From IMG/VR virus record IMGVR_UViG_3300006802_000085, positions 1 to 32,000 of that record: 32,000 nucleotides of DNA; one strand, 5' to 3'. This stretch comes from a virus. A program made the translations under genes and the position numbers. A model generated the notes under the pieces. It was given only the letters and a program-made list of their open reading frames with translations. It made no database searches and was not told the DNA's origin. Positions 6,689 through 30,626 of this stretch are shown here, piece after piece. Positions within the stretch are counted from its first letter, which is position 1. The number at the start of each line of letters is the position of its first letter.

Positions 6689-6741
6689 CAACGACCCGCC
6701 TTGACATGCGGGTCGCGACCGACGTACGGTGAAATCCTCTG

Positions 6742-6789
6742 AAGGCGTGGGCGCTTCCCTTCCCCGGGTGCCCGCGCCTTCTTCTTTTG
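6742..6789 (+). terminator. Rho-independent terminator after the tRNA cluster
   Basis: 11-bp stem AAGGCGTGGGC / GCCCGCGCCTT with a 17-nt loop, followed by CTTCTTTT. Confidence 0.6.
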
Positions 6790-6794
6790 ACGGC

Positions 6795-6816
6795 CGCGTT
6801 TACCCGGGTAGACGCG
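6795..6816. promoter_or_regulatory. Palindromic element, copy 1 (CGCGTTTACCCGGGTAGACGCG)
   Basis: 22-bp dyad with one mismatch, 3 nt upstream of GAGGAGG (6820-6826) and GTG 6833. One of three copies. Confidence 0.6.
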
Positions 6817-6832
6817 CGTGAGGAGGCGGGCC

Positions 6833-7312
6833 GTGGGCTACTTCACGCAGACCGACCTAGAGAACGCGCTCAGCGTTGCGATCGTCAAGGCCATCTACGA
6901 CGACGACCGCGACGGTAGCGCGGACGAAGCAGCCGTCGCCGCGTGCATCGCCTACGGCTCGGCCATGTGCGACAGCTTCCTGCGCAAGATCGGCAGCAGC
7001 GCGGGCGGTGGTGCCGCGGTAACGCTCCCGCTGGCGACCGTGCCCGACGAGGTGAAGTTCGCCGCGCTCGACTTCGGCATCGCCTACAGCGTGCGGCGCC
7101 GCCCCGACATCGTGCGCGCGACCGGCGAGCAGCCGTGGACGGTCTTCTACGAGCAGGCGGTCGAGCAGATGAAGCGGTACATCTCCTCGATGCAGATGGT
7201 GAGCGCGACGGCGATGTCGCACGCCACCGTCGGCGGCAGCATCTTCGAGGGGCCCACCGGCACGGCGCTGCCCGCTCCGCGGTGGGGCAGCTCGTGGGGC
7301 GACTACTCGTGA
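6833..7312 (+). CDS. Head-tail connector protein, Mu gp36 / DUF1320-like
   Basis: GTG 6833 lies 6 nt after GAGGAGG. GYFTQTDLENAL...AAVAACIAYGSAMCDSFLRK...LPLATVPDEVKFAALDFGIAYSVRRR follows the DUF1320 pattern (Y.t..dl...ai..A...id.yL...Y.lPl...P..l......ia.Y.l..rr). Confidence 0.65.
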   Translation: MGYFTQTDLENALSVAIVKAIYDDDRDGSADEAAVAACIAYGSAMCDSFLRKIGSSAGGGAAVTLPLATVPDEVKFAALDFGIAYSVRRRPDIVRATGEQPWTVFYEQAVEQMKRYISSMQMVSATAMSHATVGGSIFEGPTGTALPAPRWGSSWGDYS

Positions 7313-13335: not shown

Positions 13336-14130
13336 ATGACCATGCAAGCGTTGGCGCGCGGCCGAGCCGCCGCCGAGGAGAAGCCCGAACCCATGGCGCC
13401 GAGCGCGCTCTGGGCTGCCCTCACCGCCGTGCCCCGGCCCTCGCGCGAGGTCCCGCTGCCGCGCAACCTGCCTGGGACCGACACGCCCGTGGGCAGGGTG
13501 CTGGTGTGGCCGCTCACGCAAGAGGAGCAGATGGCCTGCAACACCGAGGCCGACCGCTTCGTGCGTGCGTTGATGAAGGAGGCCGTCAAGAAGGGTGAGG
13601 AGTCGCTCGGCTACACGCACTCGTTCACGAACGAGACCGCGGTGCAGGTGCTCTTCCGCGCGTGCCGCGATCCGCAAGACCCGAAGCGACCGGCGTTCCC
13701 GAGCCCGGCGGCGATGCGCGGCGAGTTGACGAGCGACGAGGTCGGTGTCCTGTTCGCGAGCTACTGCACGGTGCAGGCCGAACTCGGACCCATTCGCGCG
13801 TACCTCACCGAGGAGGAGAGCGAGGCGCTCATCCTGCGACTCGTCGAAGGCGGCTCCGCGTACCCTTTCGATTCGCTCTCCTGGGAAGCGCAGAGGACCC
13901 TGGTGAGTTTTTTGGCGTCCCGGCTTGCGAGTTGCTGGATTGCCATCTCCTCTGCTGGCTTGCCGCTCGACGTGAGCACGCTCGTCTCCGAGTGGCTGCA
14001 GAGCAGGAAGAGCGACGACGCATCCTCGATACCGCCCGGCATCAACGACGACGCTGACGACGACGACGCGCCCACCAACGACGCACCCGCGTCTACCCGG
14101 GTAGACGCGGAGGAGCCGAGCGACCCGTGA
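13336..14130 (+). CDS. Putative tail assembly chaperone (264 aa, acidic C-terminus)
   Basis: ATG 13336 with GAAGGAGGG upstream. Lies just upstream of the tape measure and ends in an acidic tail (DDADDDDAPTNDAP...EEPSDP). The call rests mainly on position. Confidence 0.5.
   Translation: MTMQALARGRAAAEEKPEPMAPSALWAALTAVPRPSREVPLPRNLPGTDTPVGRVLVWPLTQEEQMACNTEADRFVRALMKEAVKKGEESLGYTHSFTNETAVQVLFRACRDPQDPKRPAFPSPAAMRGELTSDEVGVLFASYCTVQAELGPIRAYLTEEESEALILRLVEGGSAYPFDSLSWEAQRTLVSFLASRLASCWIAISSAGLPLDVSTLVSEWLQSRKSDDASSIPPGINDDADDDDAPTNDAPASTRVDAEEPSDP
14087..14110. promoter_or_regulatory. Palindromic element, copy 2 (perfect 24-mer CCGCGTCTACCCGGGTAGACGCGG)
   Basis: A perfect dyad embedded in the last 44 nt of the chaperone ORF and abutting GGAGGAG (14109-14115), upstream of GTG 14127. 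Confidence 0.6.
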
Positions 14131-14309
14131 GCGTGCGCCGGGCGTGTGCGCGAGAGCGGTGCGGGCACGAGCGCGAGAGCCACCACAAGCACACGGTCGC
14201 GATCGACCTCGACGACGGCGGCACCGACATCATCGCCTTCTACGGGCGGTGCTCCGTCAGCTTCTGCGCATGCTTCGACTACGTCGAGCCTGCCCCCGAC
14301 AAGGACTAG
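14127..14309 (+). CDS. Small Cys/His-rich protein (60 aa), probable zinc binder
   Basis: GTG 14127 overlaps the chaperone stop (GTGA). Contains CARERCGH...H.H...CSVSFCAC. Very high GC3. Confidence 0.5.
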   Translation: MSVRRACARERCGHERESHHKHTVAIDLDDGGTDIIAFYGRCSVSFCACFDYVEPAPDKD

Positions 14310-19855: not shown

Positions 19856-20188
19856 ATGTCGTGCGGCTTCCCCTCGTTCAGCCTCCCCGGGCTGCCGTCG
19901 TTGAGCCTGCCCGGCATCCCCTCGATCTCGTTCTCGCTCTCGATCCCGTGGCCGGACCTCGACCTGAGCATGACGCTGCCGTCGCTCTCGCTCCCCGGGT
20001 TGCCGTCGCTCTCGCTCCCCGGCATCCCCTCGATCTCGTTCTCGCTCTCGATCCCGTGGCCGGACCTCGACCCGAGCCTGGAGCTACCTTCGCTCTCGCT
20101 CCCCGGGCTGCCGTCGTTGAGCCTGCCCGGCATCCCCTCGATCTCGTTCTCGATCGCGCTACCCGACTTCCCCTGCCCCTTGGATTGA
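19856..20188 (+). CDS. Triple-repeat Pro/Ser/Leu-rich protein (110 aa) immediately after the spike gene
   Basis: ATG 19856 with GGGAGG (19844-19849). Nearly every codon ends in G/C in this frame. Three 36-aa repeats built from octads such as LPSLSLPG and IPSISFSL. Cys occurs near both termini. Confidence 0.55.
   Translation: MSCGFPSFSLPGLPSLSLPGIPSISFSLSIPWPDLDLSMTLPSLSLPGLPSLSLPGIPSISFSLSIPWPDLDPSLELPSLSLPGLPSLSLPGIPSISFSIALPDFPCPLD
19868..20185 (+). repeat. Tandem repeat, 108-bp period, about 2.9 copies (coding)
   Basis: The landmark CCGGCATCCCCTCGATCTCGTTCTCG recurs starting at 19911, 20019 and 20127, exactly 108 bp apart. The units are near-identical. Confidence 0.85.
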
Positions 20189-20192
20189 AACG

Positions 20193-20774
20193 ATGGCGCT
20201 CTCCGGCTCTGCGATCGGCAGCATCATGGCGGCGGCGGTCGGCGCGCCCGCGTCCGCGGGCGGTATGTTCGCCGCGCTCGGCACCGCGATCCAGGGGTGG
20301 GCGGTGAGCAAGGTCACGGTCGTGCCTACGACGATGGCGGCGGTGGGCGGCGTCGTCAGCGGGCTCGGCATCTTCACGGTCACCGGCGACGCCGTCGAGC
20401 TTGGCGGCTTGCTCGCGGACGCGCTCACGCTGCCCGTCGACGCGACGAGCGCGCGCGAGGTCTGGATCGCGACGGCGCAGGCGCTCATCGATCACTTCAC
20501 CAGCTTCGGGCAAGTCAACGGTACCGGCTTCACCAGCGGGGTGCCGCTCGCGGGCGCGGGCACCGTGGTGTGGACCTCGCCCGTGTTCGTGCCGCCGCTC
20601 GCGGTGCGCATCGGCGTGAGCGACCCCGTCGCGGGCGCACTGCTCGCGCTCTTAGAGGCGCAGCTCCTTCTCTACATTCAGATCAACGCGAACGTGGTCT
20701 CGGTCTCGCTCAGCGGCCCGCCGATGAGCGCCCCCACCGACGGGCCCGTGGCGGGCACGGGCACGATCGTCTGA
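20193..20774 (+). CDS. Ala/Gly-rich hydrophobic hypothetical protein (193 aa)
   Basis: ATG 20193 lies 4 nt after the upstream stop. High GC3. No family recognised. Confidence 0.5.
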   Translation: MALSGSAIGSIMAAAVGAPASAGGMFAALGTAIQGWAVSKVTVVPTTMAAVGGVVSGLGIFTVTGDAVELGGLLADALTLPVDATSAREVWIATAQALIDHFTSFGQVNGTGFTSGVPLAGAGTVVWTSPVFVPPLAVRIGVSDPVAGALLALLEAQLLLYIQINANVVSVSLSGPPMSAPTDGPVAGTGTIV

Positions 20775-20775
20775 G

Positions 20776-20797
20776 CGCGTCTACCCGGGTAAACGCG
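20776..20797. promoter_or_regulatory. Palindromic element, copy 3 (CGCGTCTACCCGGGTAAACGCG)
   Basis: 22-bp dyad with one mismatch. It fills the 31-nt gap between TGA 20772-20774 and ATG 20806 and overlaps GGAGG (20797-20801). Confidence 0.6.
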
Positions 20798-20805
20798 GAG
20801 GCACT

Positions 20806-21294
20806 ATGGCAGGAGCAGGCAACCAAGGCGCAGGCGCGTCGAGCGCAGGGGGTGGCACGCCCGCGCTCGCGAACGTGCCGAGCGGTGGCTTCCTTGCCGA
20901 CCCGTGGTCGAAGGTTCCGCTCGGCGCACGCAAGGTCGACCCGCACACTCGCGACTACGTCATCGACAAGGTTACCGGGCGCATCATCGGGGTGGGTAGT
21001 GTGCGCGCCGCTGTACAGATGAGCGTCCACATGGCGAAGCGGAGCAGCGCCGTGTTCGAGATGGGCCACGACCTCGCCGCGATCCAGCGCATCACGCCCA
21101 ACACCCGCAAACGCGTTCTCGCCACGCTCACGGACGCGCTCGCGCCGCTCATCCGCTTGGGTCTCGTCGAGGTCGTGGGGTTCACGCAGTACAAGGTGGG
21201 CGACGGGCTCAACGGCATGGAGCGCGGCGCAGTGTTTGGGCGCTTGCAATGGCGCGACCTGACGACGGGACAAGCCTTCACCGAGGTGGTGTGA
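20806..21294 (+). CDS. Putative baseplate protein (Mu gp46 / gpW-gp25 position)
   Basis: 162 aa directly upstream of the J-like gene. VRAAVQMSVHMAKRSSAVFEMGHDL...LTDALAPLIRLGLVEVVGF loosely fits the baseplate wedge W/gp46 pattern. Confidence 0.45.
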   Translation: MAGAGNQGAGASSAGGGTPALANVPSGGFLADPWSKVPLGARKVDPHTRDYVIDKVTGRIIGVGSVRAAVQMSVHMAKRSSAVFEMGHDLAAIQRITPNTRKRVLATLTDALAPLIRLGLVEVVGFTQYKVGDGLNGMERGAVFGRLQWRDLTTGQAFTEVV

Positions 21295-24966: not shown

Positions 24967-26388
24967 ATGGCGATCACCAGGACCTACCCGAGCGCGTGGG
25001 GCGTCGGCGACAAGCTGACGAGCGCGCAGCAGAACGCGCTCGACACCGCGCTCACGTACGCGCTCGACAAGCGTGCGGGCTACGCCGATGCCCTCGCGAG
25101 CATCGTGCGGGCGACGGGCTCGGGGCGGCTGATCGACTCGATGGCGACCGGGCCCGACGCGAACTGGAACTTCAACCTGCTCGCGCACGGCGCCAGCGCG
25201 GCGGCGGCGGGCATCGTCCGCATCCCCACGCTCACGGCCGCGCGTACGTACAAGCTCCTCGCCAGCGGCGCGACGATGGGCGACCGCATGATGTTCTACT
25301 ACGAGGGCACGGGCGGCAACGCGAGCGGCTACGCCAACATCACGAACTCGCAGGGCACCGGCATCTTCCGTCTCGGTGTGCGCGCTTCGAGCGACTACAG
25401 CTACGAGGCGCAGGGTGCGAGCGCGGAGTTCGTCTTCGGTTCGAGCGAGTGGGCGCTCGCGCGCGAAGGCGCGCACAACAAACGCGCGATCGTGTTCACG
25501 TCCCCGACAACGTGGGTTTGCCCCCCGGGCGTGTTCGAAATTCTTCTCATCGGCTACGGCGGCGGCGGCGGCGGCGCCGGTGGCGGGGGTGGCGCAGTCA
25601 CGTCGGGATGGTTCGCGACGGGCGGGGGTGGCGGCGGTAGTGCTCTATCGGACGTTCGCCGTGTAGTCGTGGTGCCGGGCACCGCTTACACCATCACGAT
25701 CGGTGTGGGCGGTGCGCCCGGCGGACCGGCCGGAGCAGGCATCGCGACGGCCAACACCGACGCCGCGCTTGCAGGTCCCGGCGATCCCGGTTCGGCGACG
25801 ACGTTCACGAACGCGAGCACGGGCGAGGTGCTCGCATCGTTCCAGGGTGCGAGCGGTGGTGCGCCCGGTGCCGTCCGTGCCGCCGCGTCCATCGGCGGGT
25901 ACGGCATCGCGCTGGGCGGCACGCCGTGGAACTCGTCGCCGACGACTCCGACCGGGATTAGCGTCCCGTCGGGATACGAGTCATTCATCTGGTCTATCCC
26001 CAAGTCGCCGGGGTACGGCGGGCCATCGATCAACGGCGCAACCGCTGTGCTCGGGCGGTTCTGGGATGCGCACTTCTCAAACGGATCGAACGCTTTCGGC
26101 TACACCGGCGGCGTCGCCGGTGCCAACCCTCCTCAAGGCTCGCGCATGCCGGGGTCAGGCGGTGGCGGTGGCGCCGCCGGGCCAGGGGGTAACGGCGGCG
26201 CGGGTGGCGACGGGGGCACCGGCGTGGTCGGCGCCGTTGCTTTGGTCGGTCTCGACGGTCAGGACGCCACCGCCAATAGCGGAGGCGGCGGCGGCGGCGG
26301 CGGCGGCGGCGGTTCGAGCGATGTGGGAGGAGCCGACGGCGGCACGGGCGGCGCGGGCGGTGACGGCAAGCTGGTTCTACTGCTTTGA
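24967..26388 (+). CDS. Glycine-rich tail fibre-like protein
   Basis: 473 aa. WVCPPGVFEILLIGYGGGGGGAGGGGG...VVVVPGTAYTITIGVGGAPG plus further poly-Gly blocks match the glycine-rich domain seen in phage fibre proteins. Lies downstream of the baseplate genes. Confidence 0.7.
   Translation: MAITRTYPSAWGVGDKLTSAQQNALDTALTYALDKRAGYADALASIVRATGSGRLIDSMATGPDANWNFNLLAHGASAAAAGIVRIPTLTAARTYKLLASGATMGDRMMFYYEGTGGNASGYANITNSQGTGIFRLGVRASSDYSYEAQGASAEFVFGSSEWALAREGAHNKRAIVFTSPTTWVCPPGVFEILLIGYGGGGGGAGGGGGAVTSGWFATGGGGGGSALSDVRRVVVVPGTAYTITIGVGGAPGGPAGAGIATANTDAALAGPGDPGSATTFTNASTGEVLASFQGASGGAPGAVRAAASIGGYGIALGGTPWNSSPTTPTGISVPSGYESFIWSIPKSPGYGGPSINGATAVLGRFWDAHFSNGSNAFGYTGGVAGANPPQGSRMPGSGGGGGAAGPGGNGGAGGDGGTGVVGAVALVGLDGQDATANSGGGGGGGGGGGSSDVGGADGGTGGAGGDGKLVLLL
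26284..26310 (+). repeat. (GGC)9 microsatellite, in frame (poly-Gly); a second (GGC)6 lies at 25558-25575
   Basis: Direct reading of the sequence. Both tracts lie in the codon frame of the 24967-26388 gene. Confidence 0.9.
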
Positions 26389-26895
26389 CGGGCACCACGC
26401 GTTCACGTATGCGATCACGTCTCGCGGAGCGATGCGCGGTTCGGCATCGGACCACACCGGGGTCATGATCGAATCGGGGTCGTCGTCGTGGCCGAGCCCG
26501 AGTCCGTGACCGATCTCGTGTGCGGCGACGCGCCAGAACTTGGGGTCGCGCACGTGCGGCCCGTTGTCGCGGATCATGACGCTACCGCCCCGTGGGAGCT
26601 GACGAGTCATGGCTTCGCAAGTGTCGTTCGGCGGGTTCGCGTCGAGCACCTCGATGTGCCAGTCGCGCGTCGTTGCTTGCGTCGTGGAGATGCGGGCAGG
26701 GCATGACGATGTAGCAAGCGCGTCGTTCCACGCAGCGACCGCGATCTCTACCGCGTCGCGGCGCTCGTCGCGGATCGAGTCTGCGATCGACAACGTCCAC
26801 TCGCTAGGCGGCCGATTGTCTTCCGTTTGCGGTGACACCGCAGAGCACGCGATCAGAGCAACAACCGCAACCGGAATAACGATGATGTTTTTCAT
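26377..26895 (-). CDS. Lipoprotein zinc metalloprotease (metzincin, matrixin/M10-like)
   Basis: The only convincing minus-strand ORF. Signal peptide MKNIIVIPVAVVALIAC has lipobox LIAC. The zinc motif HEIGHGLGLGH is followed by DDDPDSIM (Met-turn). Codons in the signal peptide are more A/T-ended (GTT ATT GTT GTT GCT). Confidence 0.8.
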   Translation of the reverse strand: MKNIIVIPVAVVALIACSAVSPQTEDNRPPSEWTLSIADSIRDERRDAVEIAVAAWNDALATSSCPARISTTQATTRDWHIEVLDANPPNDTCEAMTRQLPRGGSVMIRDNGPHVRDPKFWRVAAHEIGHGLGLGHDDDPDSIMTPVWSDAEPRIAPRDVIAYVNAWCPSKQ

Positions 26896-29745: not shown

Positions 29746-30560
29746 GCGAGCTACCGCGAGGCACCGGATGGGTGCCGGACAACGACGACGTCGTTGCCGA
29801 CCAGCTCGCGCGCTACCCGCTCGGGCGCTTGATCGGCGCCAAGCCTCCGAGCATGGACGATGCGCTTCCGGGCTTTCGCCTCACGTACCGGCACCTGCTC
29901 GCTGACGGCGTGCCGAACCAGGGTCCGACGCAGTCGTGCGTGGGCTTCGCCTTCGGCTCGGCGATCCTGCTCAACGCCTGCATCGCGGGCATGACCATCC
30001 CGCGCCCGAGCGACCTGTTGATCTACGACTTCGCCCGCATGGCGAGTCGACCCTACGCCCCGCTCGATGACGCGGGCTCGCGGCCGTTTCTCGCCCTCGG
30101 CGCGCTGCTCGAAAAGGGGATGGTCGCCGCGAGCAGGTGGCCGCTCATCATCCACGCCGACGGCACGAGCAACGTCAACGACCTGCCCCCGCTCGACGTC
30201 TTCCAGGACGCGCTCGCAGCGCGCCTCGACTCCTGGTACCGCATCGCCTCGGGCGTGGGCGCCGACGAGTTGGTGCGCGCCGCGCTCTCGCGCGGCTACT
30301 GCCCCGTCTTCGCCATGCCCGTCGACTCGACGTACATGTGGTGGAAGGGCGGGGGCATCTACGAGGGCCGCACCGGCGGCGTGCTCGGCTGGCACATGCA
30401 AGCCGTCTGCGGCTTCGGAGACGGCTACGTCGAGGTCGTCAGCTCGTGGGGCCCGGGGCACGGCGACCGCGGCTTCGTGAAGATTGCAAACGCGTACTTC
30501 ACCTCGGGCGAGTGCAAGGACATCATCGTGCCGAAGGTCGTGCCACCGCTCGCGGCGTGA
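29742..30560 (+). CDS. Papain-like (C1 family) cysteine peptidase
   Basis: VPNQGPTQSCVGFAF aligns with papain NQGSCGSCWAF, keeping the same Gln-to-Cys spacing of 6. GWHMQAVCGFGDGYVEVVSSWGPGHGDRGFVKI aligns with HAVAAVGYG...IKNSWGTGWGENGYIRI, with Ser in place of the Asn. No signal peptide. Confidence 0.8.
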   Translation: MSELPRGTGWVPDNDDVVADQLARYPLGRLIGAKPPSMDDALPGFRLTYRHLLADGVPNQGPTQSCVGFAFGSAILLNACIAGMTIPRPSDLLIYDFARMASRPYAPLDDAGSRPFLALGALLEKGMVAASRWPLIIHADGTSNVNDLPPLDVFQDALAARLDSWYRIASGVGADELVRAALSRGYCPVFAMPVDSTYMWWKGGGIYEGRTGGVLGWHMQAVCGFGDGYVEVVSSWGPGHGDRGFVKIANAYFTSGECKDIIVPKVVPPLAA

Positions 30561-30584
30561 CGACGGATCCGCGCGGATCCGTCG
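30561..30584. other. Perfect 24-bp palindrome / hairpin after the peptidase gene
   Basis: CGACGGATCCGCGCGGATCCGTCG begins 1 nt after TGA 30558-30560. No U tract follows. Confidence 0.6.
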
Positions 30585-30626
30585 CCGCCACCACCATCGC
30601 CCACACCTCGCAGGAGCCAACGCCGC

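Follow-up and report, generated by a model that had tools for sequence, protein, structure and literature searches.

A dispersed 22-bp dyad at gene ends and in short intergenic gaps of an uncultured contractile-tailed phage: a candidate site for a dimeric DNA-binding protein

The stretch of DNA analysed here (the window) comprises 32,000 nucleotides (nt), positions 1 to 32,000 of the IMG/VR virus record IMGVR_UViG_3300006802_000085, and is the late operon of an uncultured high-GC contractile-tailed phage (myovirus) with Mu-like head genes. Our subject is a dyad of 22 base pairs (bp), one copy of which is extended to a perfect 24-bp palindrome at positions 14087–14110. Walking along the same phage revealed six copies in addition to the three in the window, at least nine in total, and a 16-bp core, GTYTACCC/GGGTARAC (GTYTACCCGGGTARAC), is invariant in the alignment of all nine. 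Several near-identical copies in one genome, limited to short non-coding gaps or gene ends, are features of dispersed phage dyads, and both are found here. The reading that we favour, and to which we give an even chance, is that the dyad is a dispersed operator in double-stranded DNA for a sequence-specific DNA-binding protein that acts as a homodimer and is most likely a product of the phage itself.

Copies of the dyad and their positions

Each site contains two half-sites of the form (CGC)GTYTACCC, 8–11 bp long. With 37 mismatches in 32 kb, the window matches a section of a 66,977-bp metagenome contig at 99.87% identity, and this contig was read from position 1 to 63,343 via protein look-ups near its edges; about 68 kb of the phage were seen in all. 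In the list below, record coordinates are those of the 67-kb contig record, all other coordinates without a contig name are those of the window, and the Shine–Dalgarno (SD) sequences next to the window copies are included.

Copy 0, L020 4054–4075: upstream of the portal gene, 4 nt past a stop codon and 22 nt before the next start
Copy 1, 6795–6816: CGCGTTTACCCGGGTAGACGCG, with T at the Y position of the left half-site; 16 nt ahead of GTG 6833
SD and start, 6820–6835, + strand: GAGGAGG and the GTG of a Gp36-like gene, directly 3' of copy 1
Copy 2, 14087–14110: CCGCGTCTACCCGGGTAGACGCGG, the perfect 24-bp palindrome, with the 22-bp unit at 14088–14109
SD and start, 14109–14129, + strand: GGAGGAG and GTG 14127 of a 60-amino-acid (aa) open reading frame (ORF); the first two G of the SD are the end of the palindrome
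Copy 3, 20776–20797: CGCGTCTACCCGGGTAAACGCG, the exact reverse complement of copy 1
SD and start, 20797–20808, + strand: GGAGG and ATG 20806 of a conserved 162-aa baseplate-region gene; the first G of the SD is the last base of the dyad
Copy 4, record 44877 (L026 12532): 3' of the lysis genes, with the next ATG 73 nt away
Copy 5, record 47060 (L026 14715): holds the TAA stop codon of a 94-aa gene, 22 nt before the ATG of a helicase gene
Copy 6, record 53031 (L026 20686): holds the TAA stop codon of a 102-aa gene, 120 nt before the next start
Copies 7 and 8, record 56713 and 57044 (L028 13541 and 13872): both within a duplicated 113-bp unit, each 63 nt before the next start

The first-pass annotation of the window had reported the palindrome and two related copies, and both their coordinates and their sequences agree with ours. 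It had also held that three such copies cannot be due to chance. This is confirmed: in 100 dinucleotide-preserving shuffles of the window no match to the dyad was obtained even when three mismatches were allowed, and at the same tolerance the window itself has just the three matches listed. Assemblies made independently from other samples (ENA, Logan and the JGI contigs L011–L013) contain identical window copies, and an assembly artefact is excluded because L011, L012 and L013 carry them. The count of three copies is, on the other hand, an artefact of the window edges, as six more are found in the same phage genome.

The T-run of an intrinsic terminator ends 4 nt before copy 1, and GTG 6833, behind the copy, is the start of a Mu Gp36-like head–tail adaptor gene. 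Copy 2 falls within the final 44 nt of a 264-aa tail-chaperone-like gene (13336–14130), where it encodes the peptide PASTRVDA; the earlier placement of this copy in coding sequence is right, and the peptide belongs to a non-conserved acidic C-terminal tail of the protein. The distance from copy 2 to GTG 14127 of the 60-aa Cys-rich ORF is 16 nt for the 24-bp palindrome and 17 nt for the 22-bp unit. Copy 3 starts 1 nt past the TGA of a 193-aa gene (20193–20774) and ends 8 nt before ATG 20806. All three starts match independent gene calls. Copies 1 and 3 vary at mirror-image positions, as noticed in the first-pass annotation, and the one is in fact the reverse complement of the other.

The copies avoid the interiors of genes. 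With gene interior defined as anything more than 15 codons from the 3' end, interiors make up 87% of the 63-kb record according to the collection's own gene calls, and all eight copies on this record are outside them (P = 8e-8, or 6e-7 with the duplicated pair counted once). The position of the dyad relative to the upstream gene is more regular than its position relative to the downstream one: six of the nine copies are found at −42 to +4 nt of a stop codon, and two of them (copies 5 and 6) supply the upstream TAA itself. Where the gap is long, as it is at copies 6 and 7, the dyad stays by the end of the upstream gene and away from the next SD.

The first-pass annotation had tied the motif to ribosome-binding sites. 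In the window this description is correct, since a GGAGG-type SD adjoins each copy, either 3 nt downstream of it or overlapping it by 1–2 nt. As a general rule it does not stand, because over the nine copies the next start is anywhere between 8 and 120 nt away. The tight spacing in the window results from intergenic gaps that are only about 30 nt or less, and the contact with the SD is a packing effect of these gaps and not a conserved geometry. For annotation this means that such a contact is not to be taken as evidence of a translational operator. The proposed restriction of the motif to late module boundaries fails as well: copies are also present in the lysis, replication and early regions.

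Some of the copies accompany terminators or promoter-like repeats:

6741–6790, + strand: intrinsic terminator, a stem of about 14 bp and then CUUCUUCUUUUG, at the end of an inserted cassette of about 740 bp
L028 9965–9992, 11336–11363, 11643–11670, 13590–13617 and 13921–13948 (record 53138–57121): five copies of a promoter-like element of about 45 bp, AAAAAGTG-TTGCGCGTYGGCGCGCGAYRGTTCATAG

The terminator at 6741–6790 is the one that precedes copy 1, and this copy is at the right edge of the insertion of about 740 bp as defined by comparison with a relative of 90% sheath identity. The terminator 21 nt past copy 6, with a 19-bp stem and a T12 run, is stronger than any other in the genome, and the five promoter-like elements are located downstream of it. 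Four of the five end 6–7 nt before an ATG, and three of the ORFs concerned begin with ATGACGACG. We take these elements to be probable early promoters whose transcripts would be leaderless mRNAs. Two of them have a dyad (copies 7 and 8) 28 nt upstream of their TTGCGC, so that the dyad is centred at about −74.5 from the ATG. The sites can be clearly grouped by position into those that follow a stop codon, those next to a terminator and those that precede a repeated early promoter-like element by 28 nt. The copies of the late operon have no promoter-like hexamers near them, and the 8–17 nt that separate dyad and start codon in the window are too few to accommodate a promoter.

The cassette left of copy 1 contains a promoter-like TTGACG at 6115, an ORF fragment similar to PTH2 (6260–6505) and two tRNA genes (6525–6607 and 6612–6688). 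Together with a gene at 3820–3894 there are three tRNA genes within the structural operon. One is a tRNA-Met, the second is called only by Rfam and the third is called by ARAGORN as a tRNA-Tyr with the odd anticodon 'ata'. The PTH2-like ORF of 81 aa, just 5' of two of the tRNAs, has a weak match to PTH2 peptidyl-tRNA hydrolase (Pfam E=0.0024). Its frame opens at about 6155, but GTG 6260 is the first start codon in it; the gene may be truncated or have an unusual start.

Sequence variation and distribution of the dyad

Within the core only one position, 6 together with its mirror position 17, is variable, with C in 8 and T in 10 of the half-sites. The CGC/GCG extensions of the core are mostly kept, and copies 0–6 share nothing outside the 22 bp. 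Among the distinct sequences the pair 6:17 is C-G in two, U-G in two, U-A in two and C·A in two cases when written as RNA, and for pairing at this position 391–394 of 500 shuffles score as well as the observed set. The two half-sites therefore vary independently and RNA pairing shows no sign of selection, a result of modest statistical weight. A symmetric site in duplex DNA with one tolerant position per half-site fits this pattern, with the same modest weight.

The dyad was searched for in the structural regions of 15 related loci with 57–90% identity in the tail sheath protein. It is absent from all of them, both at the three junctions occupied in the window and elsewhere, and no substitute or other repeated dyad was found at the same junctions or anywhere in these loci. 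Conservation in relatives, a check that the first-pass annotation had recommended, was therefore not observed, and in this the dyad departs from the Cluster O and EG repeats discussed below. It is important to note that the genes next to the window copies, namely the tRNA/PTH2 cassette, the 60-aa Cys-rich ORF and the 193-aa gene, are themselves missing from most relatives.

Searches for the 22-mer CGCGTYTACCCGGGTARACGCG (Y/R allowed) gave 0 exact matches in 185,579 species-representative genomes (the host of the phage is not identified) and 0 matches in 2.9 million viral contigs of IMG/VR; the full dyad had 0 matches in 50,697 GenBank phages. A repeat of the host genome was the finding that, according to the first-pass annotation, would have spoken against a phage function; with no match in the representative genomes the motif is no known host repetitive extragenic palindrome (REP). 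A metagenome scan for the 22-mer returned a single contig, L020. Because L020 shares its first 584 nt, at 95% identity, with the beginning of the 67-kb contig, it represents the upstream continuation of the phage in a close variant and is no independent occurrence. The order on L020 is terminase, a 225-aa ORF, the dyad (copy 0), a 160-aa ORF and a Mu-type portal gene. In reference genomes no sheath relative was found with a single sequence as query, and an alignment query found only a Sorangium prophage at 50% identity. Among GenBank phages there is no near-identical DNA for 15.5 kb of the window. For the early region IMG/VR has a single distant match at 48% identity. The 191-kb viral contig L166, whose UvrD-like helicase is 48% identical, carries an exact 14-bp dyad of its own, GGCAGTCGACTGCC, three times in 22 kb (6117, 13819 and 18002).

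The 16-bp core alone is found in scattered single matches in unrelated phyla, in roughly chance numbers. Symmetric variants of the core are about 4.6 times more common than asymmetric ones (102 vs 22 of 124 sites in 120 genomic stretches), and in bacteria the core is often embedded in longer palindromes. No genome has a REP-like multiplicity of the core together with the CGCG flanks of the phage. Besides this excess of symmetric variants, two groups of contigs stand out from the chance-like background:

L042 1013–1028, 2443–2458 and 3287–3302: the core GCAGTTTACCCGGGTAAAC with a common GCA flank, adjoining a stop codon, an intrinsic terminator and a TTGACA (one each)
L067 180–201, L069 2424–2439, L077 2424–2445, L105 3755–3776 and L145 629–650: the core GTTTACCCGGGTAAAC at the 3' end of ParB-like genes

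L042 is an unrelated T7-like contig (57% GC, with a T7-type terminase and tail fibre) that has no protein in common with the window phage. The other five are contigs of metagenome-assembled genomes of Chloroflexota. In these, the ParB-like genes encode proteins of about 400 aa or more; the position at the gene end was checked in four of the five contigs, and the matches to HTH_ParB/ParB_N are near the threshold. An extended form, AAAAGGTTTACCCGGGTAAACCTTTT, is present in four of the contigs, two of which have a primase-like gene nearby. Judged from these sequences, the Chloroflexota sites are probably parS-type sites of a divergent ParB family.

Possible functions of the dyad

If the dyad is an operator of the favoured kind, a protein dimer would occupy the sites, and its binding would mark or insulate the boundaries of transcription units and cassettes. 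Boundary control is the likeliest action because the positions of the sites vary relative to promoters and terminators. In the late operon the bound protein could serve as a roadblock or as a termination aid against read-through. At the early promoter-like repeats, where the dyad is centred far upstream of the leaderless ATG, it might act as a promoter-distal regulator. Such mixed geometry would resemble a global regulator with several classes of sites and is unlike a classical promoter operator. Two small genes beside the sites encode candidate binders, both weak. One is the 102-aa protein (L028:9567–9875) whose stop codon is inside copy 6 and for which Pfam, PHROGs and PDB SmtB give sub-threshold winged-helix signals. 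The other is a 302-aa protein (L028:2519–3427) encoded just downstream of copy 4, which may contain two helix-turn-helix (HTH) motifs, again sub-threshold.

Several points weigh against an operator. No binding protein was found and all HTH signals are sub-threshold; about 10–12 kb of the genome are outside the portion seen. The argument against RNA pairing is statistically weak since it uses only two variable positions. Relatives at 80–90% sheath identity have neither the dyad nor a substitute at any of the three window junctions. Given such relatives, insertion must have added several 22-bp sites in recent times, and a pure operator model leaves this unexplained. Moreover, the copies flank genes that most relatives lack, as the boundaries of cassettes or mobile elements would. 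The available assemblies are all at least 99.86% identical, so that no signal of purifying selection can be read from them. Finally, a simple sigma-70 consensus scanner called none of the promoter-like repeats.

The main rival of the operator is a mobile or recombination-borne palindrome, which we regard as unlikely. Here the dyad would be a miniature element similar to REPs or to miniature inverted-repeat transposable elements (MITEs), or else the edge of a cassette, that has spread recently into places where it is tolerated (gene 3' ends and intergenic gaps) and whose effect on regulation is secondary. Its absence from every relative, including the one with 90% sheath identity, and the adjacency of each window copy to a gene or cassette that relatives lack are what such an origin would leave. 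Two copies give the upstream gene its TAA, and another lengthens a non-conserved tail by eight in-frame codons. Copy 1 is related to copy 3 as one asymmetric unit inserted both ways would be, but a tolerant half-site position explains the Y/R variants equally well. The core is also found three times in the unrelated T7-like contig; however, the 22-mer itself has no source population in the genomes, viral contigs and GenBank phages searched. There is neither a target-site duplication nor a shared flank, and no transposase, RAYT (the transposase usually associated with REPs) or integrase is encoded in the 68 kb seen. The analogous repeats of Cluster O phages are not associated with insertions or deletions (PMC4351075).

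An RNA hairpin is, in our judgement, somewhat less probable still, and there is no positive support for it. On the + strand the dyad could form a stem of 9–10 bp with a CCGG loop, which might be a site of RNase III type, a stabiliser of the cistron 3' end like the REP or puf intercistronic hairpins, or a boxB-like or translational operator. All genes are on one strand, so all copies are transcribed in the same sense. The copies cluster at the 3' ends of cistrons and where less protein is needed from one gene block to the next (head, then tail, then tape measure and baseplate), and in the window the SDs are partly within or beside the stem. The hairpin appears in the local minimum-free-energy folds of six copies (0, 1, 2, 4, 5 and 6) but not in those of copies 3, 7 and 8. 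Across 11 folds the z values against shuffles range from −2.47 to +0.73, and no copy folds much better than shuffled sequence. Covariation is absent: a C·A mismatch in two of the eight distinct copies is what independent variation predicts. The spacing to the SD ranges from −2 to more than 100 nt, there is no U-tract 3' of any of the nine copies, and in a search with Rfam 15 at the gathering threshold the window gave three tRNAs only, with no family matching the dyad. A purely structural role in RNA would leave the sequence identity over 16–22 nt unexplained. The lean of the first-pass annotation towards a DNA-level site for a dimeric protein, over a pure hairpin, is strengthened by the independent variation at position 6/17 and by the three copies whose folds lack the hairpin.

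It is improbable, more so than a hairpin, that the dyad is a centromere-like or OB-like loading site for a clamp or spreading protein of the ParB, KorB or Noc type, encoded in the remaining 10–12 kb or by the host. Neither Pfam nor a hidden Markov model of the Chloroflexota ParB-like proteins detected a ParB-like protein in the 68 kb, the last 10–12 kb being outside this search. If this reading were true, nine or more sites would organise or silence the whole phage chromosome instead of acting as classical operators. The core GTTTACCCGGGTAAAC would then be a shared 'address' that is reused by the T7-like contig and by plasmid-like Chloroflexota elements.

The first-pass annotation had compared the motif with the Mu C-dependent late promoters. 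A binding site for an activator of the Mu C or P2 Ogr type, or for a repressor, at three late modules has dyad symmetry in its favour, as well as the Mu-like head genes (Portal_Mu, Gp36) and the fact that the window copies precede functional blocks. This model nevertheless does not hold up, and we consider it very improbable. The dyad ends so close to the start codon (8–17 nt) that a promoter downstream of it would start inside the gene, and no promoter-like hexamers are near the window copies. Copies are also located in lysis, replication and early regions and ahead of a terminator, and the spacing to the SD or start varies over the genome. No homologue of Mu C, Ogr or Ogr_Delta was detected, the 60-aa ORF included, and the phage is not Mu-like outside its head genes. 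Least credible of all is a repeat of the host genome, REP-like or a regulator box taken up by the phage. The occurrence of the core in many bacterial genomes, the excess of symmetric variants and their frequent embedding in longer palindromes would agree with it, but the 22-mer is missing from the representative genomes. The matches to the 16-mer are single, spread over unrelated phyla and close to the chance number, without REP-like multiplicity in combination with the CGCG flanks.

Three further candidates were rejected. A promoter for a phage RNA polymerase of T7 or N4 type is contradicted by the symmetry of the dyad, by positions ahead of terminators and by the lack of a phage RNA polymerase gene. 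A mimic of a CRISPR repeat would need a conserved handle, and none is present outside the 22 bp. A role of copy 2 in a programmed −1 frameshift that joins the chaperone to the 60-aa ORF was discarded since there is no in-frame X XXY YYZ heptamer; the other copies have no such context. The 60-aa Cys/His-rich ORF is nevertheless worth a remark of its own. It lies in the −1 frame of the tail-chaperone-like gene, and this frame is open from about 14055 to 14309, as in frameshift products of the G/GT type. The ORF is missing in relatives; the 90% relative has unrelated ORFs of 72 and 34 aa at this place.

The phage genome and comparison with known systems

The window has 68% G+C, and all real genes are on the + strand, with one minus-strand candidate mentioned below. 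The head genes comprise a prohead protease/scaffold, the major capsid protein and the Mu Gp36-like adaptor; Mu-like matches among the head genes are Portal_Mu and Gp36. The tail genes encode the tail sheath, tape measure, DNA_circ_N, gpP-like, Baseplate_J and Mu Gp48-like proteins, and a strong intrinsic terminator at 31055–31090 closes the late operon. 3' of the tail genes there are glycosyl- and methyltransferases, an endolysin-like gene, small ORFs, a DEAD/ResIII helicase and a DnaB-like helicase. Further along, a Toprim primase, a cluster of tiny ORFs, a UvrD-like helicase and a family-B DNA polymerase (PolB) follow. The PolB, DnaB-like, primase and UvrD-like genes set the phage apart from Mu outside the head region. 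We found no integrase, repressor, transposase or RAYT in the 68 kb seen. The genome is about 70–80 kb in size and the phage is virulent-looking. The same proteins are listed for a contig of 80,770 bp, and the source samples are estuarine.

Some other features of this genome were noticed. A block of sugar-modification genes on the phage strand lies between the tail-fibre genes and the endolysin (L014 10669–19277, record 33.7–42.3 kb). It encodes a 1169-aa glycosyltransferase/methyltransferase fusion, a second methyltransferase, an NAD-dependent epimerase/dehydratase and a GFO/IDH/MocA oxidoreductase. Amid the tail-fibre genes there is a metallopeptidase-like ORF of 172 aa (26377–26895, − strand) with matches to Peptidase_M10/Reprolysin, the only credible minus-strand gene of the window. 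A 108-bp tandem repeat at 19883–20152, with 2.5 copies that match at 87%, gives a small ORF 5' of the 193-aa gene its Pro/Leu/Ser-rich units, and the relatives L002 and L005 have repeats of 102 and 108 nt at the equivalent position. A single 28-bp palindrome with one mismatch, GACGACGGATCCGCGCGGATCCGTCGCC, is located at 30559–30586 between the last two late genes and is unrelated to the dyad family. The window and the 67-kb ENA contig differ in length only by a 6-bp indel in a 132-aa gene (5568–5966), at about 5600–5800.

Dispersed intergenic dyads have been recorded for a decade in several clusters of actinobacteriophages without an assigned function. The present phage offers a small and clean case, with about nine sites, a long and unambiguous 22-bp dyad and two candidate small HTH genes beside the sites. 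If a binder is found, it may explain how a virulent-looking phage with a one-strand genome of about 70–80 kb sets up separate expression units when no internal promoters can be recognised. That sites were apparently gained recently beside accessory cassettes also bears on the question of how regulatory sites and morons travel together.

Dyads in the intergenic gaps of Cluster O and Cluster EG phages have been attributed to dimeric DNA-binding proteins (PMC4351075, PMC7302621). In Cluster O mycobacteriophages (Corndog and relatives) a 17-bp dyad, TGTTCGGNNNCCGAACA, is present in 34 copies, mostly not at promoters, and the authors predict a dimeric DNA-binding protein with a role other than transcription initiation (PMC4351075). 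Our dyad is similar to this repeat in being short, with near-invariant arms and many copies that occupy small gaps genome-wide and are mostly away from promoters. The sequences are different, and so is the architecture: 7-bp arms and a 3-bp spacer in the 34 Cluster O copies, as opposed to at least nine copies with half-sites of 8–11 bp and no spacer here. Furthermore, the Cluster O repeat is kept in all members without a link to indels, whereas the present dyad is lacking in relatives and adjoins variable genes. Microbacterium phages of Cluster EG have an 18-bp inverted repeat, GATCAACCNNGGTTGATC, 14–22 bp upstream of starts (PMC7302621). The start-associated look of the three window copies (8–17 nt) recalls it. 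The EG repeats are, however, confined to the non-structural right end with a narrow distance to the start, in contrast to the late, lysis, replication and early locations and the range of 8–120 nt found here.

REPs and bacterial interspersed mosaic elements (BIMEs) are GC-rich palindromes of about 20–35 nt located after stop codons in operons, sometimes by terminators, and they can tune the relative expression of the cistrons on either side. REPs are host-chromosomal, imperfect, present in hundreds of copies and usually mobilised by RAYT. Such extragenic palindromes and intercistronic stabiliser hairpins were used as a comparison system (PMC3184786). Unlike a REP, the dyad has no copy in any reference genome searched, no RAYT in the 68 kb seen and no sign of selection for pairing.

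ParB-family sites are a further point of comparison. KorB of RK2 has several classes of OB sites that are dispersed at heterogeneous distances from promoters. The consensus of parS is TGTTTCAC-GTGAAACA and that of the Noc-binding site (NBS) is TATTTCCC-GGGAAATA (PMC7383237); phage N15 has four dispersed inverted-repeat centromere sites (PMC7205306). Sites of this family are perfect 16-bp palindromes with a T-rich outer part, dispersed over a replicon at varying distances from promoters, and the dyad may be compared with them. It shares with the NBS the CCC/GGG centre and the T-run, the register being off by one base and the half-site longer by one base. Unlike ParB-family systems, the phage has no ParB-like protein and no partition ATPase in the 68 kb seen, and the flanks of its sites differ from those in Chloroflexota. 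A link between the dyad and ParB-type sites is thus speculative.

The stoperators of Cluster A mycobacteriophages are bound by the L5 repressor gp71 at many sites in short gaps of the lytic operons, where they act as roadblocks to elongation. They are asymmetric sites of 13–14 bp that depend on orientation, and the phages that carry them are temperate and have a known repressor. The present sites resemble them in being off-promoter and in short gaps, and a roadblock is the model that we favour for the copies of the late operon. They differ in that the dyad is symmetric and 22 bp long and that no repressor, integrase or other sign of lysogeny is apparent in the 68 kb seen.

Taken together, the dyad is an ordinary kind of phage repeat, real and non-random. 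It is a further case of the unexplained dispersed phage dyads and differs from the earlier ones by its absence from relatives and by the variable genes that flank it. By analogy, it would work most like the stoperators or the dispersed sites of KorB/ParB type.

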